Shown: positions 50-28,371 of the stretch, one piece after another
How positions within the stretch are numbered: position 1 is the first letter of the stretch
How the letters are laid out: every line of letters starts with the position of its first letter
UHGV virus genome: UHGV-0041739
Length of the DNA stretch: 35,963 bases
Source of the DNA: a virus
Reading direction: 5' to 3' (one strand)
The notes under the pieces: generated by a model
Told to the model about the DNA's origin: nothing
Seen by the model: the letters and a program-made list of their open reading frames with translations, nothing else
Databases searched by the model: none
Program-made: the position numbers and the translations under genes

Positions 50-595
50 TTAGTGGCTTTGCGCTATAAGATCGTCTGGCGATAGTCGGGTCACCATCAT
101 AACTAACTCTCTGTCTAAACCTCTATCCAGCATCTCCTGAGCAATACGCAGGGCTTCTTCGCGTTTGCCCAGAATTAATCCATCATTCCGCCCTTCTTCA
201 CGTAATCTGTCAGCAATGGTCATCAGTTTCTCCTTTTCTTGTGGTGCGCGTTCTGCTATCTCACCAATAAATGCACGGAAACGCTGGGCATCTCCCGTTT
301 GTAATACATAATTAAACAGGGCTTTTAGCTGTCTGTCATTAGTGTTCCCTGTAACTAGCAGCGAAACAATTTGGTCGACTAATCCCAACAGATCGCGCTG
401 ACGAATATGTTTCTGAATTAACTCCAACAGCGCCATTTTGCGGTGTTGCATAATCTCGTCATCCGGCACCACGGTAATATCCACCAACGGAAAAGCCGAT
501 GAATATATTTTACGGGCAATCGCAGGCTCAGCAAATTCATCAAGCCAGCAGAGTGAATAAGGATAAGGACTTCTGCAACCATGATAAAACAGCAT
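50..595 (-). CDS. Host flank: C-terminal portion of an Rpn/YhgA-like (PD-(D/E)XK, Transposase_31 family) protein, apparently truncated at its 5' end by the Mu-like insertion
   Basis: ORF begins 3 nt from the prophage end and the frame stays open into phage DNA. C-terminal pattern [16 protein letters not shown]...[18 protein letters not shown] resembles Rpn-family C-termini (from memory, no search). At 181 aa it is shorter than typical ~290 aa Rpn proteins. Confidence 0.4.
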
Positions 596-598
596 CGG

Positions 599-713
599 TG
601 AAGCGGCGCACGAAAAACGCGAAAGCGTTTCACGATAAATGCGAAAACTTTAGCTTTCGCGCTTCAAATGAAACAGCAGTATTAATTACTGCTTTTTATT
701 CATTACATGGGGA
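599..713. other. Mu right end (attR) with clustered MuA end-binding sites (R1-R3 type CGAAA/TTTCG repeats)
   Basis: Repeated ACGAAAAACGCGAAAG / GCGAAAACTTTAGCTTTCGCG motifs within ~100 bp of the terminus; mom stop codon at 714. Confidence 0.8.
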
Positions 714-1439
714 TCACTTAGGGTATGGCTGAACCCTGAATAGCTTGGTATTTAGCCGCTTCCTTGCTCGCTTGTTCAGGAATCTGATGTAGCGATACTG
801 ATTAAATTTGTGCACCACGGCACGCTCTTTATTAGCCCGTAAATACACGCCTCGTTGTCCACCTCGCTTAATCGCGTTCATCGTTATCTCGTGATACCAC
901 TCACCATCCAGCTCGTAGAACGTACTTTCATGACTGCCAATAAAATCAAAATTCGACGCCTGATACACAACGCCTGCGCGTCCGCAGCGTTCGTCAGCAA
1001 AGGACTGAACCCACTCCACTGACGGATACAGTAATCTGATAACTTTCAGCGCGTAGCTAATGGCCCGTGATTCAGAGTTGCGGGGCATGTCGTCGTGTAG
1101 CCACATGCGGTTCAACTCCATATAGCCCCGGTTATCCGTTTCAAGCACGACACGACGACCTGAGTTGGGGTTAAGGGCATATCCCCACTGGAGAACGCCA
1201 ACCAGATCGCGTCCGCTGAATACCCCCAGGTGAAGGTAAGAGTTATTCACAAAACGGCGGGAATAGTGCTTTGTCTGAATAATTGTGCGGGCTAGCCAGC
1301 AGGATATGGTTTCAACGCGCAGCTCCTTTGAACCATAGCCAACAATCTGGCCTTCATACTCAATAACGCACGGTTTCGTCAGAATGCGTGATTTCTTCTC
1401 TTTTCCCACAATGTTTCTCCGTGGGATGCTCGCAGGCAT
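714..1439 (-). CDS. mom: Mom DNA modification protein (adenine acetamido-modification, anti-restriction)
   Basis: Last gene before attR, directly downstream of and overlapping com, as in Mu. True start may lie downstream of the ORF-track start. Confidence 0.85.
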
Positions 1440-1548
1440 TCAGCATTATGATGTGACGTTTGCAACGCGGACACCTGATTTCAATGTGAACAAAGGAATC
1501 CGCCTTAAATAACAGTTTGTTGCAGTTTTTACAGCGAATTGATTTCAT
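1360..1548 (-). CDS. com: Com zinc-finger translational activator of mom
   Basis: 62 aa with CxxC...CxxC zinc ribbon ([13 protein letters not shown]...CPRCKRH); overlaps the mom 5' end. Confidence 0.88.
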
Positions 1549-1665
1549 CTCACCTCCTTTGCATCAATTCGCCACTATCTTAAAAAACATCGTGGGTTAA
1601 GTGTGGTTATTAGGGCATAATCGATCTGTATTACCGATCGATTTGATTGATTCGATCGTCGTTTT
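1549..1665 (-). promoter_or_regulatory. mom promoter region: three GATC Dam sites (1623-1626, 1636-1639, 1654-1657) and a candidate C-activator site (1605-1622)
   Basis: Three GATC within 35 bp upstream of com, overlapping the gin 3' end. The dyad-like GATTATGCCCTAATAACC (minus strand) matches the known Pmom architecture (Dam/OxyR switch plus C site). Confidence 0.7.
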
Positions 1666-2224
1666 CTATATGCGTTCGTTTCGCAGGGTGTTTTTTATAC
1701 AGAGTTGACAGGGCCACATCGTAGATCAATGCGACCTGCTTGCGGGGGATTCCTTGTGCTAATAAACGCCCGGCCTGCTCCCACTCTGCTTTGGTTAGTT
1801 TAGGTGGTCGCCCACCAATACGGCCTTTATTTCTGGCGGCAGCAAGTCCAGCCATCGTTCGCTCGATAATTAGTTCTCGTTCCATTTCAGCCAGAGCCCC
1901 CATAACGTGGAAGAAAAAACGCCCCATTGGAGAAGATGTGTCTATGTTGTCGGTCAGACTGCGAAAATTAATCCCTCGCTCCCGTAGTTCCCCGACGAGA
2001 GAAATCAGATGTTTCATACTTCGCCCGAGGCGATCCAGTTTCCAGACAACCAGCGTGTCACCTTTTTGAAGGCGCTTTAAAGCGCGTTTTAATCCCGGTC
2101 GGTCTGTCTTTGTCCCGCTTAATTTATCTTCAAATATTTGTTCACATCCTGCACAAACAAGAGCGTTTCGTTGCAGGTCTGTATTCTGGTCATTTGTTGA
2201 TACCCTTATATAGCCAATCAGCAC
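1631..2224 (-). CDS. gin: Gin serine DNA invertase (resolvase/invertase family)
   Basis: N-terminus MLIGYIRVSTNDQNTDLQ with catalytic Ser, C-terminal HTH; located beside the G segment. Confidence 0.93.
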   Translation of the reverse strand: MLIGYIRVSTNDQNTDLQRNALVCAGCEQIFEDKLSGTKTDRPGLKRALKRLQKGDTLVVWKLDRLGRSMKHLISLVGELRERGINFRSLTDNIDTSSPMGRFFFHVMGALAEMERELIIERTMAGLAAARNKGRIGGRPPKLTKAEWEQAGRLLAQGIPRKQVALIYDVALSTLYKKHPAKRTHIENDDRINQIDR

Positions 2225-2278
2225 TCTGGATCTCCCGTTTAAAAGCGCAAATCATGCCATGCAGGCCGGAAACAGCCA

Positions 2279-2312
2279 TTATCCAAAACCTCGGTTTACA
2301 GGAAACGGTAAA
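2279..2312. repeat. gix recombination site (gin-proximal) within the S'v 5' end
   Basis: TTATCCAAAACCTCGGTTTACAGGAAAC is present in inverted orientation at ~5323-5350; near-identity extends ~80 bp. Confidence 0.8.
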
Positions 2313-3249
2313 TCAGGCTTCTGGCGCATTACAGAAAAACCAGAACGGCGCAGATATTCCGGGAAAAGATACCTTCACCAAAAATATTGGGGCCTGTCGC
2401 GCATATAGCGCATGGCTGAATATTGGTGGCGATAGTCAGACCTGGACAACCGCACAATTCATTTCGTGGCTGGAGAGTCAGGGGGCATTTAACCATCCTT
2501 ACTGGATGTGCAAAGGCTCATGGGCTTATGCAAACAATAAGGTCATTACAGATACAGGTTGCGGAAATATTTGTCTTGCAGGTGCTGTGGTGGAAGTTAT
2601 TGGCACTCGCGGCGCAATGACCATACGCGTTACTACGCCGAGTACATCCAGCGGTGGCGGAATTACTAACGCTCAATTCACCTATATTAATCATGGTAAT
2701 GCTTATGCTCCTGGCTGGCGACGAGACTACAACACGAAAAACCAGCAGCCTGCATTTGCTTTAGGGCAAACAGGAAGCAGGGTTGCAAATGATAAAGCTG
2801 TTGGCTGGAACTGGAATAGCGGCATTTATGATGCAGATATCAGTGGCGCATCGACATTAATCCTCCACTTTAATATGAATGCGGGGAGTTGCCCTGCTGT
2901 ACAGTTCCGCGTGAATTACAGGAACGGCGGTATTTTTTATCGTTCAGCGCGTGATGGTTATGGATTTGAGGCTGACTGGTCAGAGTTTTACACCACGACC
3001 CGCAAACCCTCTGCGGGAGATGTTGGTGCATACACGCAGGCAGAATGTAACTCAAGGTTTATTACAGGTATTCGCCTTGGCGGTCTGTCATCTGTTCAGA
3101 CATGGAATGGTCCCGGCTGGTCTGACAGGTCAGGTTATGTCGTTACGGGTTCAGTTAACGGAAACCGTGATGAATTAATTGATACAACTCAGGCAAGGCC
3201 AATTCAGTATTGCATTAATGGAAGGTGGTATAACGCGGGGAGTATTTAA
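2280..3249 (+). CDS. S': S'v alternative tail-fibre variable cassette (silent; no own start, expressed only after G inversion fuses it to Sc)
   Basis: ORF-track entry 2110-3249 extends upstream into gin antisense; homology to S (IIQNLGLQETVNQASGALQKNQNGADIP) begins at the gix site. Gly/Asn/Thr-rich fibre-like composition. Confidence 0.7.
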
Positions 3250-3251
3250 TT

Positions 3252-3785
3252 ATGATGCACTTAAAAAACATTACTGCTGGCAACCCTAAAACAAAAGAGC
3301 AATACCAGCTAACGAAACAATTTAACATCAAATGGCTTTATACAGAGGATGGGAAAAACTGGTATGAGGAACAAAAGAACTTTCAGCCTGATACGTTGAA
3401 AATGGTCTATGACCACAACGACGTTATTATTTGTATTGAAAAGGATGTTTCAGCAATTAATCCAGAAGGCGCAAGCGTCGTTGAGGTTCCTGATATTACA
3501 GCAAATCGCCGGGCTGATATTTCGGGTAAATGGATGTTCAAAGATGGCGTAGTGATAAAGCGAACTTATACCGAGGAGGAACAGAGGCAGCAGGCAGAGA
3601 ATGAAAAGCAAAGCCTATTGCAACTTGTCAGGGATAAAACCCAGCTATGGGACTCACAGCTACGGCTGGGTATCATTTCCAACGAGAATAAACAAAAATT
3701 AACCGAGTGGATGCTCTATGCGCAGAAGGTCGAATCCACAGACACCTCCAGCCTGCCAGTAACGTTTCCAGAACAACCAGAATGA
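3252..3785 (+). CDS. U': U' tail fibre assembly chaperone (alternative)
   Basis: Paralog of U ([24 protein letters not shown] vs [24 protein letters not shown]); follows S'v directly. Confidence 0.85.
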   Translation: MMHLKNITAGNPKTKEQYQLTKQFNIKWLYTEDGKNWYEEQKNFQPDTLKMVYDHNDVIICIEKDVSAINPEGASVVEVPDITANRRADISGKWMFKDGVVIKRTYTEEEQRQQAENEKQSLLQLVRDKTQLWDSQLRLGIISNENKQKLTEWMLYAQKVESTDTSSLPVTFPEQPE

Positions 3786-3787
3786 AA

Positions 3788-3812
3788 CAAGGCCCGCTAT
3801 CGGGCCTTAATT
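3788..3812. terminator. Bidirectional intrinsic terminator between convergent U and U'
   Basis: GGCCCG-CTAT-CGGGCC hairpin (3791-3806) flanked by T-rich tracts on both strands. Confidence 0.6.
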
Positions 3813-3813
3813 T

Positions 3814-4341
3814 TTATTCAGGCTTTTGTGGCCATTCAGGATTTGCCGTATCCACACGGCTGACCAGAACGCTGTAGCGTTCCCATGCTTCCAGTCGTGT
3901 GCGTTCCTCGTCTGTTGCCATATTCAGCCTGACAGCGCGTTCCAGCGGCTGGATGACTGATTCAGCTTCGGAAATCAACGCGGCCTTTTGTGATTCGGCC
4001 TGTTGTTGCTGTTCGTCAGCCGTATAAATCCGCTTAATCACAGCACCATCCTTAAACATCCATTTACCTGAGTCATCAGCACGTCGGTTGGCGGTAATAT
4101 CAGGAACCTCGACAACGCTAAAACCTTCAGGGTTAAGCGTGGAGGCATCTTTGGTGATGGCGACAATAATATTATTTTCGTCGTATACAATCTTTATGGT
4201 GTCGTCCTGAAAGTTATTTACTTCCTCATACCAGTTTTTACCGTCTTCTGTATATAACCAGATAACATCAAAATTCTTTGTTAGCTGACATTGCTCTTTT
4301 GTTTTTGGATTTCCTGACTTAATATTTTTTAAATGCTGCAT
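3814..4341 (-). CDS. U: U tail fibre assembly chaperone
   Basis: 175 aa, immediately downstream of S; paralogous to U'. Confidence 0.85.
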
Positions 4342-4344
4342 AAT

Positions 4345-5847
4345 TTACACCTGTGCGACGTTATACCATGTGCCATTGATGTATTTTTGTATTGGTCTGA
4401 AGATGGCTTCATCATCGCCATCTACTTCACCAATGATTCTTAATCCGGTAATTGCGTGTCCGGCTTTTTCATAACGACCACCACGCGCCATCAATTGAAC
4501 AACACGCGTACCCAGGCGAACATCTTTCACATAACGGGAATCAAAGTTACCGTAATCCGAGGGGTTAACACGCCCTGTAATATTTATGGTTTTATTACTT
4601 TGAATGCTGCCGGAGACAAAGCGCATAACATGGACGTTATTAGCATAAACGTCCAGATTACCGTCGCCATTTTGTTTAAAGCCCGTGTCATTATCACCCA
4701 AAACAATCGAGTTACCGCCAAGAGCACTGGATGTTCCGATACCCAGTGCACCATTCAATTGACCACCAGATAATGACAACGCCCCAACATCAGCAGCAGT
4801 CGGTTTTATGTGCGAACTGTAAATTACATATACAGTCCCATCTGTCAGGCCTGTCGGTTTATTCGCTGTATAAGTTGGTGATGTATGAATTTGTACAGTG
4901 GCATCCTTTGTATAATCCCACTGGATATTAACACCCGTGGCGTAATTACCTATTTCTACATAAATGTCATAGGTATCACCGGATGTATTCACCCATGCAA
5001 AATTAGTAAATCCAACCGAGGTCCGTCGCCATAATGCACCAGTAATACCCTTTGGATTTCCATTTCCGGCACGCAGAACCAGCTCAGAGATGCCTGCTTG
5101 CTGCGGGGAGCCAACGTTATACCCTGCACCACCAATCAGGCTTATGTAAACCACGGAACTGGCTTGTGGCATTGTTACAGTTGCCAGTTTGAACCATCCT
5201 GCACCACCATTAAAAGACATGGTTGTTGAATTTGTTGCTCCAATATTGCGCAGGAATAATCTTTTATCAGGAATATCTGCGCCATTCTGGTTTTTCTGCA
5301 ACGCACCAGAAGCCTGATTTACCGTTTCCTGTAAACCGAGGTTTTGGATAAACAGCGGCTTATTGGGAATATCTGCTCCGTTCCGGTCTTTTGCCAGACG
5401 GGCATTGGCATTATCCATCGCAATTTTCACCGCTTTTGCGGTGGCTGCCAGCGTTTCACTGGGGCTGTCAGTGGCACTGGTTAGCTGAACGAGTCCTTTT
5501 TTGTTCAGGCTGGCATCATAGATATCCAGATTTTCACGTGCTGTACGCTGTGCTGATGCCCCGGCAATTTTAATTTCGCTGAGGTTATTTTTTATCAGCA
5601 GCGCGTTATTGCTCATAATGGATTTAATGGACAGTGCAAGCTGGTTTAATTTTGTTTTATCCGGTTGAATACCGGCTTCTTCCAGCGTGTTTAATAACTC
5701 CGCCTGCACAATATTAAACCAGTCCATGCCGGGCCATGTGATAACATTATTCCCGTCACCTTCTGAAAACCAGCGAACGATAGCACTACGCTGGGCGGAT
5801 ACGGGCGGCATGACGGTTACGCCGCTGTCGTTATCAATATAAAACAT
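4345..5847 (-). CDS. S: S tail fibre protein (Sc constant N-terminal ~165 aa plus Sv variable part inside the G segment)
   Basis: 500 aa; gix site lies within the coding sequence at residues ~165-178 (LFIQNLGLQETVNQ); Gly/Asn/Thr-rich C-terminal fibre region. Confidence 0.88.
   Translation of the reverse strand: MFYIDNDSGVTVMPPVSAQRSAIVRWFSEGDGNNVITWPGMDWFNIVQAELLNTLEEAGIQPDKTKLNQLALSIKSIMSNNALLIKNNLSEIKIAGASAQRTARENLDIYDASLNKKGLVQLTSATDSPSETLAATAKAVKIAMDNANARLAKDRNGADIPNKPLFIQNLGLQETVNQASGALQKNQNGADIPDKRLFLRNIGATNSTTMSFNGGAGWFKLATVTMPQASSVVYISLIGGAGYNVGSPQQAGISELVLRAGNGNPKGITGALWRRTSVGFTNFAWVNTSGDTYDIYVEIGNYATGVNIQWDYTKDATVQIHTSPTYTANKPTGLTDGTVYVIYSSHIKPTAADVGALSLSGGQLNGALGIGTSSALGGNSIVLGDNDTGFKQNGDGNLDVYANNVHVMRFVSGSIQSNKTINITGRVNPSDYGNFDSRYVKDVRLGTRVVQLMARGGRYEKAGHAITGLRIIGEVDGDDEAIFRPIQKYINGTWYNVAQV
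5317..5350. repeat. gix recombination site (S-proximal), inverted copy
   Basis: GTTTCCTGTAAACCGAGGTTTTGGATAA, reverse complement of the 2279-2306 site. Confidence 0.8.
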
Positions 5848-6389
5848 TAGTTATCTCCGTCATGGTAAACAAATTTATAAATCTGATGCGCGGGTTTATA
5901 TTTCTCCAGTAAACATTCCAGCGCACCCGATTCATAAACACGTAACGGCGTCAGAACATTATCCAGCACCGTTGCGTTGCGATAATTTTTAATACCGTAA
6001 ATATTGACCTGCGTAACCCACTGGCCTTCTGTGGAATCCGTCAGCCTGACGGTAAAACCGTACTGCGCAGCCAGCCATTCATAAAAGCGCCTACTCAGAT
6101 TGCCGGTCATACGCATTTTATTTGCGGCAGCCCGCTGGCGTTCTGACAGGGTGCCGTTTTCGCTGGTACAGTCCGGCAACCCCAGAAATGATTCCCACTC
6201 ACCCAGATACCAGCGGGATGTGGACGGGAAACGCTCCCGCAGCATTTGCCGCGCATCATCCGCCGCAGTGGCAATCACGTCGCTGATGGCCTGCGCCAGC
6301 GCAGATAATTTGCTGTCGGGGCTTTTATTCCAGGCAAGCCCTGACGGCAGTAATTGCAGAAAGGCCGTCTGATAGGGTGTTACAGCCAT
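5847..6389 (-). CDS. Baseplate/tail protein (Mu gp48-like, DUF2313-type)
   Basis: Position between the J-like baseplate gene and S; start/stop overlap with neighbours. Confidence 0.6.
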   Translation of the reverse strand: MAVTPYQTAFLQLLPSGLAWNKSPDSKLSALAQAISDVIATAADDARQMLRERFPSTSRWYLGEWESFLGLPDCTSENGTLSERQRAAANKMRMTGNLSRRFYEWLAAQYGFTVRLTDSTEGQWVTQVNIYGIKNYRNATVLDNVLTPLRVYESGALECLLEKYKPAHQIYKFVYHDGDN

Positions 6390-7462
6390 TCAATTGTCCC
6401 CGGTGTTAACAGTTCCGTATTCTCCGAACGCTGGATCTCTGTCGGGAAACGCACTTCAAAATCATCCAGACCGGTAACACCTGCCACCGCACGGATAATA
6501 CGGGAGGGGGCAAGTGCGCCGCCCGGCATCACCTCATTAAAAAACATGGTATTAATGGCGTTGGTAATAGCCTGTTTCAGTTCGGCTGTCTTCGGTGATA
6601 TATAAATCCGTGGATTTACCGGCTTTGCCTTTGGCGCAAATACCGTGACATTTACACCGTCAGGCTGTCCGACAATCAGACCAGTGATCGGGTCAGTATG
6701 ACCGGCGATATAATCCGCCACGCGTTCCACGTCTGCCGGTTGCGGAAAAATATTGCTCCGGTTATCCATAACAAACGTCACCCCGACTGTGCCACCGCCT
6801 TTCCATGTCGGAAAACACCAGGCGCGGGTAACGCCGCTGACTTCACGTGCCCAGCGAACGTAATCAAACTGATTACCGCCGAACGGAGGGTACTGGACAC
6901 GATATTCCAGCCGTGACAGCAGCTCCGCTGCACTCTCAATATCAGCCCCACCGGAAAACCCTTTTACAGTGATGGCATCGGAAACAACACAGGCAACCGG
7001 GGTGATCAACGTTAAAAGGGTATTCTCACCGGTATTTCCTGCCTCACCGGCAGCCAGTGCGGTAACGGTAATTTCCGTCGTTCCTGCATGGTCAATCACA
7101 ATGGCATCAGCCAGGCTGTAAACCACACCATCAGCACGCTGCCAGCGTGTACCGGCAGGAATGGTTGTCGCTGCCGATGTGGTGACAGTCAGCGGGCCGC
7201 TGGCGGCTGTCGCCTGTTTGCGGCGCACACCCCAGAACCGGCAGTGCTCCAGCAACTCATCTTCATCTGCTGTCGACGGGATAATCTGCCGCCCAACCCA
7301 CGAAATATGCTCGTGACAACCGGCAGCAAGCCCTGCCTGGGCGTAAGCAATGGCACTCAGCGTTTTTTCACGGGCCTGAGGCCAGCTACCCGGCAGGCGC
7401 TGTTCAATATTCTGTTCTGTACGGGCAATCAGCGATGATAATGTCGGTGGTGAATAAGCCAT
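6380..7462 (-). CDS. Baseplate J-like wedge protein (Mu gp47-like)
   Basis: 360 aa, position and size in the baseplate module. Confidence 0.65.
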   Translation of the reverse strand: MAYSPPTLSSLIARTEQNIEQRLPGSWPQAREKTLSAIAYAQAGLAAGCHEHISWVGRQIIPSTADEDELLEHCRFWGVRRKQATAASGPLTVTTSAATTIPAGTRWQRADGVVYSLADAIVIDHAGTTEITVTALAAGEAGNTGENTLLTLITPVACVVSDAITVKGFSGGADIESAAELLSRLEYRVQYPPFGGNQFDYVRWAREVSGVTRAWCFPTWKGGGTVGVTFVMDNRSNIFPQPADVERVADYIAGHTDPITGLIVGQPDGVNVTVFAPKAKPVNPRIYISPKTAELKQAITNAINTMFFNEVMPGGALAPSRIIRAVAGVTGLDDFEVRFPTEIQRSENTELLTPGTIEWL

Positions 7463-7900
7463 TTAAACCCCGTTAAATGCTGCTTTAAACTCATAAGGAA
7501 TAACGGAACCATCCGGTAATGTCAGTGCAATGTAGAGGTATAACCAGCCCTGATGTAACTGTTCCGCTCTGACGTTAATCGCACTTACCCGGCCCGCTGT
7601 TTTCAGCCATTCCAGCGCCTCTTCGGCATACCCTCTGGCGCGTTCCAGCGTATCCGGCGTGGCTTTTTCACGTGACAACAGCCACAACCGCGAACCGATG
7701 GGGCGGTCGCGGTAACTGTCCCCCCACCATCCACGGCGATTATCTGAACCATCCGGCAGCGTGTCAGAATCCAGCGCGCGCCGGTCTGTAAACAGGGAGA
7801 TTGTCACATCGGTTGTCAGGCTGTCGTCGGTCAGCATATCAATGCCATCCTGTGCAATATCGCCGCGTCCGTTCGTCCAGATAATGGCTAAATCGGTCAT
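7463..7900 (-). CDS. Baseplate protein, GPW/gp25-like (Mu gp46-like)
   Basis: 145 aa between the spike and J-like genes. Confidence 0.6.
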   Translation of the reverse strand: MTDLAIIWTNGRGDIAQDGIDMLTDDSLTTDVTISLFTDRRALDSDTLPDGSDNRRGWWGDSYRDRPIGSRLWLLSREKATPDTLERARGYAEEALEWLKTAGRVSAINVRAEQLHQGWLYLYIALTLPDGSVIPYEFKAAFNGV

Positions 7901-8490
7901 TGCATCGGCCCCGTGGTTCCGCCGCTGTCGCCGCGGTGGATATGCTTATCCGTCGATTTGCCATTGATGATGGCATCCGGGGCAGTAATATTGCTGTCGA
8001 ACTGGCTTTTACCTTTAACGCCCAGACCTTTCTGGATCTCAACGTCGCCGGTAAATGTGGTTCTGGGTGTATCAACGGTCATACCTTCATCAGCGTAAAC
8101 CTCAACCGTTTTACAGGTAATGATGCAGCGCCCGTCCTTTGTCAGCCTGATTCGATGCCCCTCGTGGTGGTAAATGCCTGCATCACCCGGTTCAAGATTT
8201 GTCGGGCGGTAGCGGCGGTCTTCCACCACAACGGCAATCCCCTGATCACGTTGTGCACCCACACAGGCAATCAGCGCCTCTGCGCCCGGCAGGGGAACGC
8301 TGAAATGCCCGTAATTTTGCAGGCGCTCCACTTCATCAGATTCCTCATCATCCAGCAGACCGACCTGCAGGTTCTGAACCTTTCGCCCGTCGTTAATCAC
8401 GTTAACAACGGCACGCGCAAGCATCAGACGCACACGACGCATCAGCGGTGTCAACAGGCGGTTCATGGCGGAATCATTTACTCTTTCCAC
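7897..8490 (-). CDS. Baseplate assembly protein V / central spike (Mu gp45-like)
   Basis: 197 aa with gpV-like features (...GDVEIQKGLGVKGKSQFDSNITAP...HIHRGDSGGTTGP). Confidence 0.7.
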   Translation of the reverse strand: MERVNDSAMNRLLTPLMRRVRLMLARAVVNVINDGRKVQNLQVGLLDDEESDEVERLQNYGHFSVPLPGAEALIACVGAQRDQGIAVVVEDRRYRPTNLEPGDAGIYHHEGHRIRLTKDGRCIITCKTVEVYADEGMTVDTPRTTFTGDVEIQKGLGVKGKSQFDSNITAPDAIINGKSTDKHIHRGDSGGTTGPMQ

Positions 8491-9617
8491 GGCGGCGTTT
8501 TCTCCGGGTGTCTGCGATAATAATCTTCAACCAGCGCATCAATACCGCCGTTACTGTCGCCGCCTTTCCTGTTTTTACGGTCGCTTTCAACCGGCACCAG
8601 AAAGCCTTCGCGTGGTGCAAGGCTGAGGCGGGTTTTCAGCCCGTCCTGGTCATTCAGTATCAGGGTGACTTTGCTGACCAGTAATTCTGTGGTTTTGATG
8701 GCATATTTCGAGGCATCAATAGTGACCAGCAGGTTCGGCATCCAGAGTTGCCCGTCCTTGCGTGTCCATCCGTCAATTTCTGCCTCAAAGGTGATGGATT
8801 TTGCCAGTCTGCGGCGTTGCTCACGCAGGGCGCGGGCCTGTGCATCCTTCGCCGTAATTTTGCTGTCGGCAATGATGATCATCGGTCTGTAACGGGTCAC
8901 ATCACTGTCAGTGGCGGTCCCTTTCCGGGAGACGATACTTTTCGCATCAATATCATCACCCTCAGCACCGTTTGCGCGGGCATACCCCTTGACGGTGTAT
9001 TCGCTGAACCGGTCGCGGAAGTCTTCCTCAAAATCCAGTGTCAGCAGATTTTCTCCGAGAACCAGCTCATCAGTGGCTGTGCTGGCAGCCCGGCTGAATA
9101 CCAGCTCTCCTGCGGCATTGCTGGTCATCAGTACACCGCGTGCGCGGGAGGCACGCACCAGCGCCTCATAAACGGTTTCTGAATGGTCCAGCGTGAAGCC
9201 GGGAAAAGCTGCCGAACTTTCCTTATCGGAAAGCTCCCAGCGAACGGTAACGCCATAAGGAGCGCACAGGTCACGCGCAATCTGTTCCAGTGTGCGGTTT
9301 TTCCACTGCCCGCCACTGTAAACGGCTGCACAGTCAATCAGGTCAGCCGTTTTGTCGCGCCCGGCAATAATGATTTTCATGCTGTCAGCGGCCATCTGGC
9401 GTCGCCGCGAATCGATGTAACCGGTGCAGACAATCTGCCCGTCGATTTCCAGCGTGAACGCTTTCCCCGGTGCCAGCCCGGATAAATCTGTACCCGGTGG
9501 CACATTCACCCCCAGCTCAAAATATCCGGCTACGGATTCAATGGAGCGGGTGACAGAGACTGACGTCCAGCCGGTAAACAGCCTGCCATCCGCTCGCAGT
9601 GTGACGGTATTACTCAT
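8478..9617 (-). CDS. Tail/baseplate hub protein (Mu P-like, gp44)
   Basis: 379 aa directly downstream of the DNA circularization gene; collinear with Mu. Confidence 0.65.
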
Positions 9618-11097
9618 TAATCACCTCAATACTGACACCACCGGGAACAAATAACGGGTTGCTGATACCGTTCCTGCGGGCCAGCCGTTGCCAGTTCCGG
9701 CTGTTTCCGGTGAACCGGTACAGTGCAACCATTGCCGGGAGCGTTTCTGGCAGGTGGTGTGATTCACTACCCGCCAGTTGCAGCCCGCGTTTTTCCAGGT
9801 CGGCAACAACCAGCAGACGCAGTTGCGTAAGCTGAACACTGTCTGTCGAAAAACCCTGCTCAGATGCCGTCAGAATGACGCTATCCAGCGCCGCCCCTAG
9901 CATGGCAGTTGTTTTTTCGATATCGGACACGCTTTCAAATACCGGGGGCGTGGCTGTGCTACTGTCTGAAAAGGATACTGGTGAAAAGCCGCCGTCCGGG
10001 GTTATCCCGGTTAACTGCAACTGGCTTTGTGTGACCGTGGACGATGTGCTGCTGGCACCACTGGCGATGCCGGTTGTTGTGACTGATACATCCAGCGCCG
10101 GTGCGCGGGCGGCATTATCCATCTGACGGCTGGAATCCAGTGCCGCAGTCAGTGCCTGGCTTGCTGCCTCCGCCCGGTATGTCTGTGCTGCTGCCAGCAT
10201 GACGTAGTTCAGTGTGGCAATATTTTTTTCTGCAACCGGGCTGCTGTATGAAGTGGTAATGGCACCTTGTCTGTCAGTGGTGGAGGCATGTCGGCTTTCG
10301 AACCGCTGCGCCAGACGGTTCCAGGTGGAAAATGCTGTTCGGGTATCGCATAACGATGAAACGCCGGATAACGCCCCCATCAGTGAAGATGTCAGCATGG
10401 CTGGTTTATTTATCAGGCCGGTCACAGAACCTTTCATTGCAGAAAGTAACCCCATCAGGCCGCTGACAGTCTGGGTGATCCCCAGATTATCCACCGCATC
10501 ACAGATATCATCGATGACACCGGTGACGGCATCCATTACGGCTGTTGCCGCCGCTGTGCCATCTTTTACGGTCTGCCAGACAGAGGACAACGTATCCCCC
10601 AGCGAACCGGTTACAGCAACGGCCTGCGCAGATACGGCTGTACTGGTGTCTGTTTCTGCGTCCGGGGCTGTATCCTGCAACGACGGATAAACGGTAACGG
10701 TGAACGCGTAATAATTCAGTTCATCCGCTTTAGTACGGCATTCCCATGAATCCACCATGACGTCCACAGTGCCGAACTCTGGATGCACCAGTTCGCCGCT
10801 GCCCGGTGCATCAAGAGCATCCATCAGCGCACCCGCTTCATCTCTGGCAGTCTCTGCGTTGCTGTTCAGAATGCAGATGCTGAATGTGCGGGAGCGAAGT
10901 TTTTTCCCCAGGTCATTGACACCGCCGGTATCACGTAACGGGTACTCGCGTTTAACCAGACGACGTCCGCCAGCCTGTTTTTGCTCCTCAATGACGAGAA
11001 ACGGCACGTTACGGAACGTGCCTTTGCCGGTTGTTTTCTTACCACCGCCGATTTTATCCCGGACAGAATTAACGGCATTTAAAGCATCTTCAAACAT
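9610..11097 (-). CDS. N: DNA circularization protein N-like (Mu gp43)
   Basis: 495 aa between tape measure and baseplate genes. Confidence 0.7.
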
Positions 11098-11101
11098 GGT
11101 T

Positions 11102-13213
11102 TTACCAGCCTGTAATGTAGTTATCGCCCGCGTAAATATTCAGCCCCATACCATCCTCGGTGACGCGGGAACTGGTCAGACGTAATCCTTCGCCAAGCTC
11201 GACGCGCAGCGATGCTTCCGCATTCACTTTTTGCTCCTGCGGTTCCCTTTCCGGGGCCGTCCATTTCTGATACAGGTCAGTCACAAAACCGCCCAGATAT
11301 TCCCCCGCGACACTGCCCAGCGTGGCACCGGCAACCGTGCCCAGCGGTCCGGCAAGGCTGCCAACGGCACCGCCGAGCCAGGCGCCGGCAGTGCTGCCAA
11401 TTGCTCCGGCTTTCTCATGAGTTGATGCCTGTTCATCCATCAGAACGGGAGCAAGCTGGAGCGCCCCCATCACCGGACCGCCAAGACGTGACAGTGCACG
11501 ACCCGCGCCTTTCCCCATCCAGCCCAGCGCCCCGGCCCCTTTTGTCACAACCCGACCCATGGCACTGTCTGCGAGTTTGTTTCCGATACCGGAAAACAAC
11601 CCTCCAACGGTACGACCGGCACCAGCCAGCTTTCCGATTGTTCCCGTAACCAGTTGTCCGGCAGCACTGCCTGCAAGCCTGCTCAACAGACCGGATTTGC
11701 CGGGCAAAGGTAACGATGCGTGCCGTGTGGCCCCCAGCGCACCGGGAGATGGCAATGCCAGTACCGGAGACGGTGCAGGTAATGCCAGTGGTTTCGGTGC
11801 TGGTAATGCGGGAACAGTGCGTGGGGCCGGAAGTGCCAGCGGTTGTGGCCCGGACAGCAATAACGGCTGGCGGGGCAATGCTGCCGGTGTTTTACCTCCG
11901 TATCGGGAAAATCCGCCATATCCACCGAACCCGTTGGGCCAGTTAGTCACAAAAACGCGCTGAACTGTCAGTTCCCGCAGTAGTTCTGTAGCAGGTAGCG
12001 CATCCGGTGCCGGAATGCCTGTCTGCCCATGTTTGCGTTTTCGCATCCAGCGCCACATACGACGCCCGGTTTTGAACGGATAGCTGGCAACCTGCCATGA
12101 TGGCTTCGCCACGGCCCAGCCCGCCCTCAGTGCTTTATTGGCAAGCCAGACAGACACCAGAACAGCAGCCAGTTTTTTCAGGCTGACAATATTCTGGTCA
12201 ACCCATGCCAGCGCATCTTTACCCGGTTTCAGCCAGCGCCATAACTCCTGTGCCGCAGCTTTCAGGGTTCTGAATGTGGTCAGGAATTTCTGACCAATTT
12301 CATCAGCCCGTTTATCAAGCTCCCCGGATTTATCCGCCGCATCGTGCCAGTTAAGCACCCGGCGCATCTCATTCTTGATTTCTTCAAAAGGGCCGCTGTT
12401 CATCACCCTGACGGCAAACTCGTTCCAGTTAGCCTCCATCTGTGCCGTCATCCCTGACCACGAGTTCATGGCTGCGGCCTGTGCGCCTTTTGATTGTTCT
12501 GACAGCGCCCTGAATACCATCAGGATCGACTTCAGCCCCAGTTTGCCTTTTTCCCCTTGCTTTCGGATTTCCTTAACGTCTTTACCCAGCGCATCAGCCA
12601 GTGTCTGGTAAACGTTGATACCGTAGCCGGTCAGCAGGTTGGCATCTGCCGCTGTGATTTGCTGGCGGGCGAACATCTGTTTCAGTTGCAGCGAGGCCCC
12701 CTGCGCAGCAGATAAATCCCAACCGTGTAATGCCCCCTGATCCTGCAACATGGTGATGAACTGCTTCGTCTGTTCATCCGTCATGCCAAAGCCTTTCGAC
12801 GAGCGAATTTCATCCAGAACGCCGCCCAGCCCCCACGTGGTATCCTTCGCGTTCTGCTTCGCCCAGGCCATCATTGCCTGCGCTCTGGCCTTATCGCCGT
12901 GATACAGCGAGTTCATGGCGATAATCTGCTGCTCACGTTGAGCTGCTGCGCTGATAAACAGTTTATTGGCGGTGTAACCCACCCCGGCAACACCCAGCGC
13001 CCCGGCTGACAGCATTCGGAATGTACGGGTTGAGAGGGAACCCATTCTGTCAATGGCACCAGACACGCGCACCACTTCCATACGCAGGGCACGCAGGGAA
13101 CTTTGCCCACTACGGGACAGGGCGTTTATCTGGTTCGAATACTGGCGGGAACGCCGGGAAAGATTGCCATTAAGGTCAATAATGACTGACGCTTTTAAGC
13201 GTTTCCCGGTCAT
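11102..13213 (-). CDS. Tail tape measure protein
   Basis: 703 aa, Ala/Gly-rich with Pro-rich repeat block ([24 protein letters not shown]); downstream of the tail tube/chaperone genes. Confidence 0.85.
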
Positions 13214-13357
13214 AGATATTTCCTGATTTAACGGTGATATTGAGAGAGGGTTTTAGCCTGCTGGCAGTGCCGGAAAAAGCGGGACAGCGGGAGAGACAAG
13301 GCCCATTCCGGGCCACTTTTCAGAATAACGCCAATCGCTGTCGCCGCTTTCTCAATA

Positions 13358-13792
13358 TCATTCCGGCACCGCAGCCACTCGCCCCCGTTCTTGCGTCAGC
13401 GATGCCGCCACAGCCATGTCGTGCATCTCTGTAGCCAGCGACAGACGCTGGAAGTCATCAACAGACAGCTTGCGCATCAGCGCCAGCGATAACGGGCCTT
13501 TGATGCAACCCACGCTGGCAATCTGTCGGCGCAGCATTTCCAGTCCCATCCGGGACGGGGAACTGACCAGCACCGGACCTTCCTTGCTCATTACCAGCTT
13601 TTCAGCAGCCGCCTGGGCATCAATCAGATCGCCAGCGGTCAGTTCACGCAGTGTCACGTCATACTGCATTTCAGTCTCGTCACCGGTGCCGAACGGCAGG
13701 CCGTCTTTCAGTTTCAGCCCACCGGACTGAAGCTCCGCCACAATACTGTCACGCAGTTCCTGTGCTTCAGGACTTAAATTCATTTCGTCCAT
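13358..13792 (-). CDS. Tail assembly chaperone-like protein (Mu gp41-like)
   Basis: 144 aa, acidic, between tube and tape measure genes. Confidence 0.55.
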   Translation of the reverse strand: MDEMNLSPEAQELRDSIVAELQSGGLKLKDGLPFGTGDETEMQYDVTLRELTAGDLIDAQAAAEKLVMSKEGPVLVSSPSRMGLEMLRRQIASVGCIKGPLSLALMRKLSVDDFQRLSLATEMHDMAVAASLTQERGRVAAVPE

Positions 13793-13801
13793 TGTTTCCC
13801 C

Positions 13802-14158
13802 TTATGCAATGCGTTTGCTTTGTTTTGCCATCAGTACCAGCGAAATTTCGCCGCCGTCGTTTTTCGGTTCATCTGCCTGCCAGGCATTCGCCATCATCCA
13901 GGTTTCCCCGGTATCTGCCTGAAACTCTGCCGTGATATTTTCCCAGCCGATGATTTCATCCAGACCGATATCACCACCGCCCGGAATTTTGCATTCCAGC
14001 TTTGCGGCGCGGGGTTTACCTTTCCAGCCATAAACCCGCGAGCCGGTCACTTCTTCACGGGTGATGCCGGAAGGTGTGAAGGAGGCACCTTCCATCGTTT
14101 CAAGCTCCATGCCATTGACACGGATGAACGCCACCCCCTGACGCTGATTTCCAGCCAT
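13802..14158 (-). CDS. M: Tail tube protein (Mu M-like)
   Basis: 118 aa immediately downstream of the sheath gene. Confidence 0.75.
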   Translation of the reverse strand: MAGNQRQGVAFIRVNGMELETMEGASFTPSGITREEVTGSRVYGWKGKPRAAKLECKIPGGGDIGLDEIIGWENITAEFQADTGETWMMANAWQADEPKNDGGEISLVLMAKQSKRIA

Positions 14159-14167
14159 AAATGCTCC

Positions 14168-15655
14168 TTACAGAATGAACTGAACTTGTGCCGCGAAAAT
14201 GCGGAACTGGTTAATCAGATTCGGGCCGCACAACACATCAAGACGGTCTTTGTCGTCCTTGTTACGTGCCACATACAGCTCCTCTTTGAACGTGTCGAAA
14301 TCCTCGACCAGCCCGGCGTTTTCCCATTCTTCAAACAGTGCCAGCAGCTCTGTTTTGATCACGGATGGCGTCACCACTGCCTGACCAGTGGCAAAGCGGG
14401 TGCCATCACTTGCCAGTTTGTAGTTCGGGAATTTCTGCGTGATGCGGGTTCGCAGCGAATAACGCAGATAACTCAGCGTGGCGATGGTATTCACGTTCAG
14501 ATAAGACGGATCGCTGTCACCGTACTTGTTTGTGCGGTACATCGTGATCATGCGTTCAATCTGCATTTCACCACCATCATTCACGTTAAACGTGGAGATG
14601 CCGTCAAACAGCAGGGCATTACGTTCTGACCAGGTGAAACGATCACCCACCGCAGGCGGCATTCTTCCGGGCAGCGTCAGCGTCTGGAGTGGACGCGCCG
14701 GGTCGATGGAAAGCGCCTGACTGGCAACGGCACACAGGGTGGCGGCGTACAGATATGACGGTTCCGGTGCACCGGCAATCCCCATACAGGAGATCAGATG
14801 GTCGTTACGACTGACACCAAACGTGGAAATGTCCCCATACGTGCCGGACAACACCGTTACTGCAAAGCCATCAGCCTGATTGACCGGCCCCCAGCGTTCC
14901 TGCAATTCAGTGCGTAACAGATTCAGGTTTGGTTCATCGGTGTAAGGCATCACAATATATTTGTATTGCAGATCACCCATCCCCGCGATGCTGGCGCTGA
15001 TATCCGGGTTGCTGTTTTTCCCGGATGCGGCTTTGAATGCTGTGATAATCCCGTAAGGGGTGGTTTCACCCGCGTAATAGTTCCAGCGCACGTCCACGGC
15101 AGATAATGCCCCCGTAAATTTTGCACTCAGAACCACATCTGCATGGGTGTCATCACTACCGCTGTCTGCACGTACTTCTGCCGTCACCGGTAAATCCGGC
15201 TGGCCTTTGATTCGGGCAACCAGCAGGTCAGCCAGCGCCGCCCCTGTAGCACCTGCTGCGACAGATATCGCCAGTCGCTGACCGGCAATGTAAGTCACAA
15301 GCGAGCCGTTTTCGCCTGCCGTTCCAGACAGTGAGATTTCACCGACAGCAGCATTACCGGTGCCGTTCCCCTGCGGGATACACCACAGCTCCGCCACGCG
15401 GTTAGCGTTCAGGAATGCATCTGCCATCAGTGCCAGCATGGAACCCTGACCAAACGCCGCACTGGCCTGTGAGCCGGAACGGATACGGACAGGCACGTTT
15501 GGTGCCGCACTGGCTTTACTTCCGCTTTGCCCGAACATCAGCACGCGCTGACGGGGTGCCGGTGTTCCGCTGACGGCATTACTGTTATCAAATTCGATAT
15601 ACGTCAGGGGAACGCGAACATCTGACGGGATCGCGTTAAATGAAATATCGCTCAT
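14168..15655 (-). CDS. L: Contractile tail sheath protein (Mu L-like)
   Basis: 495 aa, position and size typical of a myovirus sheath. Confidence 0.85.
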
Positions 15656-15858
15656 TTCGATTTACTCCGTTTTTTCGGCGCAGCGTCGGTATCATCCGCC
15701 GTGTTTTCGGTGCTCCCGACTTCAACCACATCACCGGCTGTAAGGCGACGTATCCAGAAACTGTTACGGGGCTTTTCTTCTCCCTCCGGAGCCAGTAATT
15801 TCATCGTGAGCGGGTCACGGATGGCTTTTCCCGCTGCGGGTTTAATTTTCAGCATCAT
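15652..15858 (-). CDS. Small virion-associated protein (Mu gp38-like)
   Basis: 68 aa, overlapping start/stop with flanking structural genes. Confidence 0.5.
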
Positions 15859-16390
15859 GATCCTTTTCCTGATTCACATTGATATGTGCGGCAAATTCCG
15901 GGGTTTCGTCCGGGAATTTCCAGGTCTGCCAGTGGCGCTCGTAATCATCCAGCGAGTCCATATCCACACCGGACGGTAACGGCGTGATGCCACTAAAATA
16001 GATACCGTACAATGCGACTCCTGAATTACTCTGGGCATCGGTATACAGGTTGCGGACGCTGGTCAGACGCAGGCCGGTTGTGGGGCCAAATGTATGTCCG
16101 TTCATTCCGGCAATCAGGCGCTCAACAATCTGGTAAATCCCCGGACGGTCGGTTTCCCGACCGTTCAGCATTTTTGCCACCACGTAAAACACCCAGCGGC
16201 TTTCCACTTCACGGCGGGTGCGGCCTTCACCGCAGCCCAGCCACGCCAGATAAACAGACGGCGGTGCAATCAGGATTTTTTTAATTGCGGCATCAGACCA
16301 GGTGCCGGGATGCGTTTTTACATCCCGCAGTGTTCGTCCGAACAACCCACGAACAGCATCGAGCAAAGCAGCTTCTGTGGTGGCAATCAT
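15842..16390 (-). CDS. Tail terminator/completion protein (Mu gp37-like)
   Basis: 182 aa in the head-tail joining block. Confidence 0.6.
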   Translation of the reverse strand: MIATTEAALLDAVRGLFGRTLRDVKTHPGTWSDAAIKKILIAPPSVYLAWLGCGEGRTRREVESRWVFYVVAKMLNGRETDRPGIYQIVERLIAGMNGHTFGPTTGLRLTSVRNLYTDAQSNSGVALYGIYFSGITPLPSGVDMDSLDDYERHWQTWKFPDETPEFAAHINVNQEKDHDAEN

Positions 16391-16812
16391 CAGATAAACC
16401 CCTTCTGGTTGCGGGAGAAAATGGCTGCGTCAGACTGCACCTCAACCAGATTTTCGCTGACCGGTTCAACACCATGCACATCTGCGCCAAGCGGTAATTT
16501 TCCGTCGAGAACCACCCCCAGCCACCTGATGGCGTCTTTGTAACGTTGTGTGCATTGCTCTGTTGCCTGTTCATCACACAGGTAATAAAAAGCAATATCG
16601 CAACAAACACGAACCAGCGTTACAGGAACCACTGACAATGGCAGCTGGTAACGGGGACTGATATAACCGTCGATAAGCGCGCTGGCATCCTGTAACGCCT
16701 GCGTAATCAGTGCATCATCTGGTTCAAAGTTGTCCGATTTATCAGCGGTCAGTTTGTCCAGATTGCTGCGCTGGTAACGCTTTACCATGTCGTCAAGAGA
16801 GGCATAGCTCAT
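16390..16812 (-). CDS. Head-tail connector protein (Mu gp36-like, DUF1320 type)
   Basis: 140 aa, position. Confidence 0.6.
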   Translation of the reverse strand: MSYASLDDMVKRYQRSNLDKLTADKSDNFEPDDALITQALQDASALIDGYISPRYQLPLSVVPVTLVRVCCDIAFYYLCDEQATEQCTQRYKDAIRWLGVVLDGKLPLGADVHGVEPVSENLVEVQSDAAIFSRNQKGFI

Positions 16813-17219
16813 GCTTGCGCCTCAGCCAGTGCTGCTTTGATTTGTGCCGCAGTGACGTTTTCCCCCAGCACCGCACTGACCGCTTTCACTTTGGGTTCCC
16901 CCCCTGCGGTAAAGTGTTCCGGGTTTGCCTGATCCAGACCGGCAACGGTCGCACGGATACGGGCGTTCAGATCGCCCACACCCAGAACGTCCAGCCCCCC
17001 AGCCTCAGCGAGCGTTTCTGCTGCCGTTGTCGATACAACAGACAACACGCTGTCGGCACGGATGATCGCCAGTTGTTCTTCGGTGACTTCCACTGTGTTT
17101 TCGCCACGCGTAAAGGCGATACCGGCGCGGCGGTAGACCGGGCGAAGACATTTAATAATCGCCGTGCAAGTGATGCGAGAAGTGTCCAGCCGTTGTGAAT
17201 TAAGCGAAGTGCCTGACAT
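16809..17219 (-). CDS. Head-associated protein (Mu gp35-like)
   Basis: 136 aa immediately downstream of the major capsid gene. Confidence 0.5.
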   Translation of the reverse strand: MSGTSLNSQRLDTSRITCTAIIKCLRPVYRRAGIAFTRGENTVEVTEEQLAIIRADSVLSVVSTTAAETLAEAGGLDVLGVGDLNARIRATVAGLDQANPEHFTAGGEPKVKAVSAVLGENVTAAQIKAALAEAQA

Positions 17220-17285
17220 AACACATGCTCCTCCTTTTCCTTTAAATCAGGTTAAAAGGCGGCCTGAACCGCCTTTTAACGACGG

Positions 17286-18203
17286 TTACAGGTAGTCAGC
17301 AACAACCAGTTGCAGCTTACCCTTCATCTCGTTAGAGACGGTGGTATTGCCATCCGCGAACAGCTCACGGTTAAGCAGTTGCTCTGCGGATTTTTCCAGT
17401 CCGACCGGTACAACGATATGCGTCGGCTTCAGGCCCAGCTTCTTACCGCCATCACCTTCAAAAGAACGCATCAGTTGCCAGCCCTTCCAGAGGTTATCCA
17501 GCGTCAGATCGCCTTTTACCGCGACAGCCATCTGCCAGAAGCCGTAACCGGCAGCACGGCGGGCGCTGGCACCAAACAGGAACTCGTTATCCATAAAAAC
17601 GTGGTCGTCATCGATACGGGTACGTGCGACCAGTTCCGGTTTGCGGCGCTCCTGGAAAATCAGCGGTTTGACTGCGCGGGAGCAGTCCAGCAGATAGAAT
17701 GGCAGACCGCTGAAGCTGTCCTGCTCAACGATGTTGGAGGTATTAACTGCGCTGCCCGTGCCGTCCACATTCGGATATACCGGATGCTCCTTGTCGAAGA
17801 AGTTCTGACCGTCATAGCAGGGCTGGGTAAAGCCATCTTTCAGAAGTTTAAAAATCAGCTCATCCGGCTGAACTGCCGCAGAACGGCCCATCTCCTGAAA
17901 AATCGGCGCATAAATACCCAGATTGTCATCCTCGAAGTCATCACGGGAAATACCCACGGTGCCTTCAAACGTTTTATTAGCGATGGAGTAGCCATGCGCT
18001 TCCATTTGCTGAATGGTTCGCTTACCCACCCATTCTTTCAGGGTCGGGAATTTACCCAGCCAGCCATAGGTATTGCTGCGGGTGGAGGAGTTCACCACCA
18101 TTGCAATTTTGCTGTACTGCGACGGGGCGTCTTCAAGACCGCCCTGAAAATCCTTACGCCAGGAGGTCATCAGAGCTTTAATGGATGCCGGGGTGACAAT
18201 CAT
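17286..18203 (-). CDS. T: Major capsid protein (Mu T-like)
   Basis: 305 aa downstream of the protease/scaffold gene. Confidence 0.85.
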   Translation of the reverse strand: MIVTPASIKALMTSWRKDFQGGLEDAPSQYSKIAMVVNSSTRSNTYGWLGKFPTLKEWVGKRTIQQMEAHGYSIANKTFEGTVGISRDDFEDDNLGIYAPIFQEMGRSAAVQPDELIFKLLKDGFTQPCYDGQNFFDKEHPVYPNVDGTGSAVNTSNIVEQDSFSGLPFYLLDCSRAVKPLIFQERRKPELVARTRIDDDHVFMDNEFLFGASARRAAGYGFWQMAVAVKGDLTLDNLWKGWQLMRSFEGDGGKKLGLKPTHIVVPVGLEKSAEQLLNRELFADGNTTVSNEMKGKLQLVVADYL

Positions 18204-19300
18204 TTTTCTTGTTCCTGTTTCATTTTCAGATACTCAGCCTCAGTAATGCCGAGCGCCTTCACTGCTGCTTTTTCATCAGCAGACAGCACCGCCACCGCCG
18301 GTTTTTCCTGCGACGGGTTTTGTACCGTTGTGGTCTGCATGGCAGATAACGCAGCGATGGGCTGTTTTTTCTCAAGCTGTGCCGACAGTGCCGCCACGCC
18401 AATCTGACCGCCAAGCTGTTCCAGATAGGCACGTTCGCTTTTGAAAATGCGGCCTTCCTGTTCCGCCTTGTCCAGAACGGCGCTCAGGCTGGCGGTGGCA
18501 CTTTGCGCGGTGGCCTGAGCCAGTTCATCAAGCACGGCGTTGTAGCTTTCCACCGGGACGTATTTCGTCAGGTCAACGGCGGCTTTCTGTGCCTTTTCCA
18601 GTTCGGCGGATAACGACGCCACTTTTCCGGCATCTGTTTCGAGTGCATCAAGCGCACTCAGGGCCGCGCTGGCCTGTTCATCAGTGATGTCTGCATTTTC
18701 GGGGACAGTTACCCCAAGACGCGCAAGCAGCTTGCGCAGCGTTTCATTCATGGGTTTGTTCTCCTGTTGAAGGATGTCGGGAAGGCCTGCCGCCAGTGCG
18801 GTCAGCTTTTTCATGCCGGTGGCACCGGGATCATTGGTCAGCGCAGCAAGGCGGATTTGCAGTACCGCACCAGTGGCGGTGTCATACGGAAAAACCGCAG
18901 AGAGATAACCAAATTCACCGTCATCGATGCGCTGCTGGGCTGCCGCTGTCCAGCGTGGGTGGATAAATAACCCTTCACCTTCACGCCACTGCATTTCATC
19001 GGCGTTAAACCAGCCAGCCGCGACCAGTTGTTCCGGGGGTAATCCTTTGTCCTTACGCAGCTGGTTATGCTCGTAATCAATCAGCACGTCCTGGTTAAGT
19101 GCGCGGATACCTTCAATCAGGCGTCCGGCAATTTCTCCGTCGATGAACCAGCCCTGACCGGTTGTTACATCAAACGGGCGACCGTCACGGGCACTGAAAT
19201 AACCGGCAGGCAATAGCTGGCACCAGCCGTCATCGTCAATGGACAGCGCACCCAGCGCAGCAATACCAATCGCGTGTTTTTTCATGTCCGGCCTGCTCAT
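18200..19300 (-). CDS. I: Head maturation protease / scaffold (Mu I-like; scaffold Z is nested in-frame in Mu)
   Basis: 366 aa with Ala/Glu-rich coiled-coil C-terminal half; likely true start at MKKH (~19285). Confidence 0.8.
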   Translation of the reverse strand: MSRPDMKKHAIGIAALGALSIDDDGWCQLLPAGYFSARDGRPFDVTTGQGWFIDGEIAGRLIEGIRALNQDVLIDYEHNQLRKDKGLPPEQLVAAGWFNADEMQWREGEGLFIHPRWTAAAQQRIDDGEFGYLSAVFPYDTATGAVLQIRLAALTNDPGATGMKKLTALAAGLPDILQQENKPMNETLRKLLARLGVTVPENADITDEQASAALSALDALETDAGKVASLSAELEKAQKAAVDLTKYVPVESYNAVLDELAQATAQSATASLSAVLDKAEQEGRIFKSERAYLEQLGGQIGVAALSAQLEKKQPIAALSAMQTTTVQNPSQEKPAVAVLSADEKAAVKALGITEAEYLKMKQEQEK

Positions 19301-24447: not shown

Positions 24448-24501
24448 AGGTGAAAAATCCGGTATAAATTTTCAGGCTTTAATCAGTAAAAAGAGGTTGC
24501 T

Positions 24502-24871: not shown

Positions 24872-24884
24872 TACATTTTCTCCT

Positions 24885-25463: not shown

Positions 25464-25471
25464 GCCTCCGT

Positions 25472-26058: not shown

Positions 26059-26070
26059 ACGCTCTCCTGT

Positions 26071-26499: not shown

Positions 26500-26503
26500 G
26501 AAA

Positions 26504-28365: not shown

Positions 28366-28371
28366 TACTGT

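Follow-up and report, generated by a model that had tools for sequence, protein, structure and literature searches.

A Mu-like prophage interrupts rpnB (yfcI) in Escherichia coli SE11 and leaves the intragenic rpnBS reading frame intact

Rpn proteins have been described as consisting of three parts, a PD-(D/E)XK core, a conserved non-core segment of 81 residues containing an invariant PDDEI motif, and a C-terminal tail that is variable, and the signature residues of the core in RpnA are D11, D63, E82, Q84 and R94 (Kingston et al. 2017, PMC5350276). Each of the five rpn genes of E. coli K-12 further has a promoter and a translation start inside the gene, from which a small C-terminal protein termed RpnS is produced (Zhong et al. 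2023, PMC10400941). The same study found that the long form RpnBL is toxic and induces the SOS response, and that K-12 RpnBS specifically blocks RpnBL, which is abolished by a stop codon at D29 of RpnBS. RpnS proteins were specific for their own RpnL, and variation in their four-residue repeats starts 8-20 residues downstream of the Met that initiates translation (Zhong et al. 2023, PMC10400941).

In the genome of E. coli SE11 a Mu-like prophage, PP_SE11-7, was listed with integration site yfcI, a 5-nt duplication and coordinates 2,660,266-2,696,947 (Oshima et al. 2008, DNA Res 15:375, Table 2, PMC2608844). The stretch of DNA analysed here (35,963 nucleotides, in the following called the window) was 100% identical to positions 2659673-2695635 of E. 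coli SE11 (NC_011415.1), and the prophage in it is the same object as PP_SE11-7. The 2008 description is older than the name RpnB for YfcI (2017) and than the model of a toxin with an intragenic antitoxin (2023), and it is silent on what is lost and what is retained. The observation as such is already known, with the insertion published in 2008 and both halves of the gene annotated in RefSeq; the sole increment of the present analysis is interpretive, namely that SE11, under the 2023 model, is an rpnBL-null strain of natural origin whose rpnBS cistron is intact.

Compared with RpnBL/RpnBS of K-12 (PMC5350276, PMC10400941), SE11 has the orthologous locus between yfcH and hisP, with 98% protein identity, the same internal Met and Shine-Dalgarno sequence and the same catalytic residues, but 36.6 kb of phage DNA interrupt its long toxin form, and the antitoxin ORF alone is whole. 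Stand-alone rpnSs genes (e.g. ypaA/RpnESs, DUF4351/PF14261; PMC10400941) resemble SE11 rpnBS in that a small C-terminal-tail protein is encoded outside a functional full-length rpn gene. They arose by duplication beside an intact cognate rpn gene, whereas SE11 rpnBS was orphaned by the disruption of its own toxin, with no intact cognate evident. With classical Mu mutagenesis the SE11 case shares TG...CA ends identical to Mu attL/attR, a 5-bp duplication and an insertion in coding sequence without site specificity; it differs in that SE11 is a natural isolate (a commensal) and its phage is a relative of Mu and not laboratory Mu.

The host gene and the prophage junctions

The original prediction, made from the sequence alone, had read the 181-aa ORF beside the prophage (Table 1) as the C-terminal part of a longer Rpn-family (YhgA-like) gene that was split by a Mu insertion, and it recognised the Mu end, the Rpn C-terminus and the split gene correctly. 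An HMM search of the 181-aa product gave a match to Pfam PF04754 (Transposase_31, YhgA-like) with E=2.2e-29 and 102.9 bits (gathering score 21 bits) over profile positions 114-202 of 203, and NCBIfam Rpn models matched from model position 120 through the end. As both sets of matches start mid-model, the 181-aa protein begins in mid-domain. Its score against the RpnA equivalog PRK09857 of NCBIfam (252.5 bits) was below the cut-off of 583 bits, a shortfall to be expected when the query is 60% of a paralogue, and the NCBIfam models listed for this ORF included no equivalog specific to RpnB. The family assignment could be refined to rpnB (yfcI) by alignment to the full-length RpnB of strain 120899, in which the ORF corresponds to residues 120-300 of the 300-aa protein.

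A nucleotide search placed the flank in its genomic context. Positions 1-598 of the window were present at >=90% identity in 4,756 of 5,426 complete E. coli genomes and were 100% identical in many of them, where they overlap the annotated genes rpnB and yfcH. An uninterrupted yfcH-rpnB-hisP locus was found in 4,748 of the 5,426 genomes, and the gene order yfcG-folX-yfcH-rpnB-hisP-hisM-hisQ is common to K-12 MG1655, strain 120899 and, with the prophage in between, SE11. Together with the 98% identity of the RpnB protein of this locus to K-12 RpnB/YfcI, synteny identifies rpnB (yfcI) specifically as the host gene. RefSeq flags the window-side piece as a pseudogene 'missing N-terminus', and both rpnB halves are annotated as incomplete Rpn-family pseudogenes. 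That the ORF could instead be a complete gene of another family, with a superficial resemblance to Rpn, has practically no probability: it is 100% identical to residues 120-300 of an annotated full-length RpnB, the family matches begin in the middle of the models, and a matching 5' half and a target duplication are present at the other prophage end. The identity to RpnB residues 120-300 rules out this candidate, and we found no point in its favour.

The ATG of the ORF (593-595) lies 3 nt from the right end of Mu, as had been predicted, the first base of which is window position 599. This ATG is the native internal Met120 codon of RpnB, and its position at the junction is the reason why the 181-aa remnant looks like a gene. 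The Mu right end reads from position 599 as TGAAGCGGCGCACGAAAAACGCG... (longer read TGAAGCGGCGCACGAAAAACGCGAAAGCGTTTCACGATAAATGCGAAAAC), and the terminal base 36717 of phage Mu aligns to position 599. At the other side, the prophage left end runs ...CTTCAAGTGAATCAATACA and is followed directly by ATCGG and then by the rest of rpnB, so that the 5' gene fragment predicted to lie beyond the left end was present. Terminal sequences of Mu attL/attR (5'-TG...CA-3') were found at both prophage ends. The pentamer ATCGG likewise occurs at both ends; the second copy directly follows the Mu left end, beyond the window, at what would be window coordinate 37251-37255, whereas the intact rpnB locus has a single ATCGG. 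It fits the target consensus of Mu, 5'-NY(G/C)RN-3'.

In-silico removal of the prophage together with one ATCGG restored an rpnB gene of 903 nt with 0/903 mismatches to the intact allele of strain 120899. This perfect restoration of the empty site, along with the target duplication, indicates that the event was a clean transposition and a recent one. The insertion is recent, with neither rpnB half decayed. An assembly artefact is ruled out by the same two results, the exact target duplication and the perfect reconstruction of the empty site. A junction query (window 450-750) was fully covered in only 1 of the 5,426 complete E. coli genomes, SE11 itself (NC_011415.1), and the exact 37-nt rpnB/Mu junction had 0 matches in JGI metagenome contigs. 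The original prediction had also pointed to the frame of the ORF remaining open across the junction. This is true, but the open frame extends just 18 codons beyond the Mu terminus before it meets a stop, with no alternative start codon, and it is uninformative by itself.

Table 1. Features at the rpnB/prophage junction and in the prophage, in window coordinates
Feature	Position	Strand	Basis
3' fragment of rpnB (yfcI), codons 120-300 and stop	50..595	-	ORF list, Pfam, NCBIfam, nucleotide identity, alignment, RefSeq
rpnBS, gene within gene, 57 aa, intact	50..223	-	Start assigned from K-12; alignment
AAGGAG, Shine-Dalgarno sequence of rpnBS, 6 nt before its ATG (221-223)	230..235	-	Sequence ACCACAAGAAAAGGAGAAACTGATG
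Right-hand copy of the 5-bp target-site duplication ATCGG	594..598	.	Junction sequences, intact locus, scripted check
Mu-like prophage PP_SE11-7, right end (attR) inward	599..35963	-	Mu end alignment, Mu/D108 identity, RefSeq genes
mom (DNA modification), last gene before the Mu right end	714..1439	-	ORF; PHROG 1384 Mom-like, E=1e-83

The break at codon 119/120 falls inside PF04754 (profile length 203), at about position 113/114 and close to where the PD-(D/E)XK core ends. In the full-length protein this domain covers residues 8-209 (304.2 bits over profile positions 1-202 for the intact allele), while the N-terminal fragment alone matches profile positions 1-118 with 190.6 bits. In this upstream remnant, which lies beyond the window, 119 native residues are followed by another 20 (IVLIHLKYEKNREDIGLFGI) that come from reading on into attL, up to a stop. 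All five signature residues of the nuclease core are conserved in RpnB and all are within residues 1-119, that is on the far-end fragment; the 181-aa ORF has none of them and only the reconstructed gene has the full set. The 181-aa product is for this reason to be regarded as a fragment of a family member and not as a nuclease. What it does carry is the 81-residue non-core segment with the PDDEI motif and the variable tail. The claim that the insertion had removed an N-terminal nuclease domain and spared a C-terminal domain needs to be refined: with the cut inside the conserved domain, and the 81-residue segment also retained, the phage did not separate the nuclease domain from the C-terminal domain.

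The Mu-like prophage PP_SE11-7

PP_SE11-7 has a total length of 36,652 bp, the last 1,287 bp of which (part of ner, the c repressor and attL) are beyond the window. Its main direction of transcription is the same as that of rpnB. RefSeq genes follow the order of Mu (transposase-domain protein, AAA ATPase, Gam, Mor, C, lysis, head, tail, gin, com, mom), and this annotation provides PP_SE11-7 with transposition proteins of the MuA/MuB type in a Mu-like gene order. Next to mom, com and gin are encoded just inside the right end. The position of mom, com and gin directly inside, in combination with the terminal alignment to Mu, identifies the sequence from window position 599 onward as the right end of a Mu-type prophage, and the location of mom next to the right end confirms the orientation of the prophage.

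Over 92-93% of the late region the identity to Mu/D108 was ~94%. For the early region (window 25000-35963) 57-60% was covered by deposited Mu-like phages at 90-92% identity (megablast). The early accessory-gene region is therefore a mosaic, part of which is new compared with Mu, D108 and SfMu. Within it we observed a 138-aa DUF2513 gene (window 29340-29756, plus strand; PHROG 585, function unknown) that lies on the strand opposite to all surrounding early genes and is flanked by a gp16-family gene and small hypothetical genes, a moron-like placement. The gene may thus be an accessory one, or one for superinfection exclusion or defence. A second small ORF on the opposite strand, of 61 aa (window 24502-24687, plus strand; PHROG 25148, function unknown), was found just upstream of the terminase large-subunit gene.

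The invertible G segment region (window 1631-5847) contains gin followed by two opposed sets of tail-fibre/assembly genes, one on the plus strand (2254..3249 and 3252..3785) and one on the minus strand (3814..4341 and 4345..5847). Of the two, it is the set on the strand of the late genes that joins the constant part, so that in this assembly the segment has the G(+)-equivalent orientation. Three terminator-like hairpins were detected on the minus strand in the interval from the stop codon of mom to the right end of Mu (window 618-693), with 0.7 expected from shuffles. These overlap the end region to which MuA binds, and they may keep transcription of mom from continuing into the rpnB remnant to some extent.

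The intragenic antitoxin reading frame

The original prediction had pointed to the C-terminal domain of Rpn proteins, which can act as an internal antitoxin. The RpnBS ORF was indeed present, but it accounts for only the last 57 aa of the 181-aa ORF. Counting from the Met of KLMTIADRL, an Asp is found at RpnBS position 29 in K-12, matching the published D29 stop mutant, and this fixes the RpnBS start at Met244. In SE11 this in-frame internal start is preceded by a ribosome-binding site (AAGGAG-N6-ATG at window 235..221, minus strand). Compared with K-12 RpnBS, that of SE11 has 4 additional amino acids at residues 12-18 (K-12: REEGA----MQGK), which places the difference where repeat variation among RpnS proteins is located. 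Relative to K-12, this extra 4-aa unit in the hypervariable helix is common to many other strains. The insertion left the RpnBS ORF untouched along with its Shine-Dalgarno sequence, and the 372 nt of native DNA upstream of the ORF as well. A sigma-70 consensus scan of the minus strand from 224 to 598 detected no convincing promoter, with only weak matches at 7-8 of 12 positions in a relaxed scan.

The 57-aa product had no Pfam match. The only PDB relative by sequence that was kept for it is the RpnAS crystal chain 7th0_A (PDB 7TH0, a three-helix dimer), a weak match (E=0.039) in which ORF residues 125-180 align to residues 1-48 of the chain, beginning exactly at the RpnBS Met. In a separate observation, a helical hairpin of RpnBS (window 89-187, minus strand; RpnB residues 257-289, ORF residues 138-170) was found to resemble the consensus pentatricopeptide-repeat motif DGLCKAGKLDEALKLFEEMVEKGIKPDVV. 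Homology to designer pentatricopeptide-repeat proteins in the PDB (whole-sequence E down to 1e-15) was rejected, with the i-Evalue of each single repeat match being >40; the E-values are inflated because one weak helical-hairpin resemblance is summed over ~10 identical repeats. The resemblance is probably a helix-turn-helix-like coincidence.

Target choice and consequences for the rpnB locus

Taken together, the locus is in all likelihood a simple insertional pseudogene, in which a Mu-family phage split the chromosomal rpnB of E. coli SE11. PP_SE11-7 integrated by MuA-type transposition at rpnB codon 119/120, thereby duplicating the 5-bp ATCGG, and the choice of rpnB as target was most likely chance. 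Mu inserts nearly at random. A full Mu-type right end was found in 33 of the 5,426 complete E. coli genomes, several of which represent the same insertion in the E. coli W lineage, and the genes adjoining these ends are unrelated to each other (the binding protein of an ssu-type ABC transporter, yidA, yeaE, ecpE, tonB, an MFS transporter and a DUF5682 gene), which fits near-random insertion. Isolated Mu right-end remnants of 50-70 bp were additionally observed in the chromosomes of DH5alpha and BW2952 and at the ends or in the interior of three clinical/food plasmids. Those in DH5alpha and BW2952 are presumably scars of Mu-based strain construction.

These insertion sites bear on the suggestion that the insertion was a notable event between a phage and a defence gene, selected because RpnB would abort Mu replication or induction, with the antitoxin being spared. 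RpnBL is toxic, induces the SOS response and is neutralised by RpnBS, and plasmid-borne RpnP2 protects against T-even phages. In addition, one of ~25-33 Mu-type insertions lies in an rpn gene while the five rpn genes make up ~0.1% of the chromosome, which gives a rough chance expectation of 2-3%, but this estimate is post hoc (the window was flagged for this very feature) and rests on n=1. If any defence gene is counted, one such case among about 30 insertions is expected. None of the other Mu-type junctions listed is in an rpn gene. Antiphage protection has been published only for the plasmid-borne RpnP2 (RpnP2LS), with none reported for chromosomal RpnB or against Mu, and neither full-length RpnB nor the fragment matched a model in PADLOC-DB v2. 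A selected anti-defence event is therefore very unlikely, and evidence for it was not obtained. With a single case, and with the other Mu-type junctions in unrelated genes, we rejected a targeted or selected insertion into a defence gene; in view of these points and of the integration site having been published in 2008, this part of the original prediction was not supported.

For the insertional pseudogene favoured here, the consequences differ between the two products of rpnB. SE11 can no longer produce the toxic nuclease RpnBL at full length. The rpnBS cistron, for its part, is intact together with its ribosome-binding site. The N-terminal stub of 139 aa is presumably inactive, because it is devoid of the conserved 81-residue segment and of the C-terminal oligomerisation tail; deletion of a 45-residue tail weakened RpnD (Kingston et al. 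2017, PMC5350276). The rpnB part next to the right end of the prophage has a single copy in the SE11 chromosome, and the cognate toxin RpnBL thus appears to be absent.

Translation of the whole 181-aa product from Met120 seems unlikely, as the Mu end (...GCCGCTTCACCGATG) supplies no ribosome-binding site. The same lack of a Shine-Dalgarno sequence before Met120 bears on a reading in which the ORF is a functional, expressed truncated Rpn, a neo-gene acting for example as a dominant-negative inhibitor or as an extended antitoxin. The ORF is intact, starts with ATG, holds the whole oligomerisation tail and has zero mutations. However, zero mutations are equally predicted by a very recent insertion, the occurrence of the junction in one genome only gives no sign of retention under selection, and the interval from mom to the end of Mu contains terminator-like hairpins on the minus strand. 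We regard a neo-gene as improbable and retain the insertional pseudogene as the best explanation.

Whether RpnBS is still made from this pseudogene, which would turn it into an orphan antitoxin-only locus, depends on the K-12 internal promoter being located downstream of codon 120, for which we estimate about even chances. There is only a slight probability for the more far-reaching scenario that orphan RpnBS is expressed and, for example, neutralises incoming RpnB-type toxins with the same repeat number, or that lysogens were selected as the loss of RpnBL lifts an abortive-infection block on Mu-type replication. If true, a transposable phage would have disarmed a gene-within-gene toxin-antitoxin defence while sparing the antidote. 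As an ordinary phage-insertion pseudogene, the locus matters little beyond its correct annotation. SE11 could serve as a ready-made rpnBL-null, rpnBS-positive background for studies of Rpn toxin-antitoxin systems.
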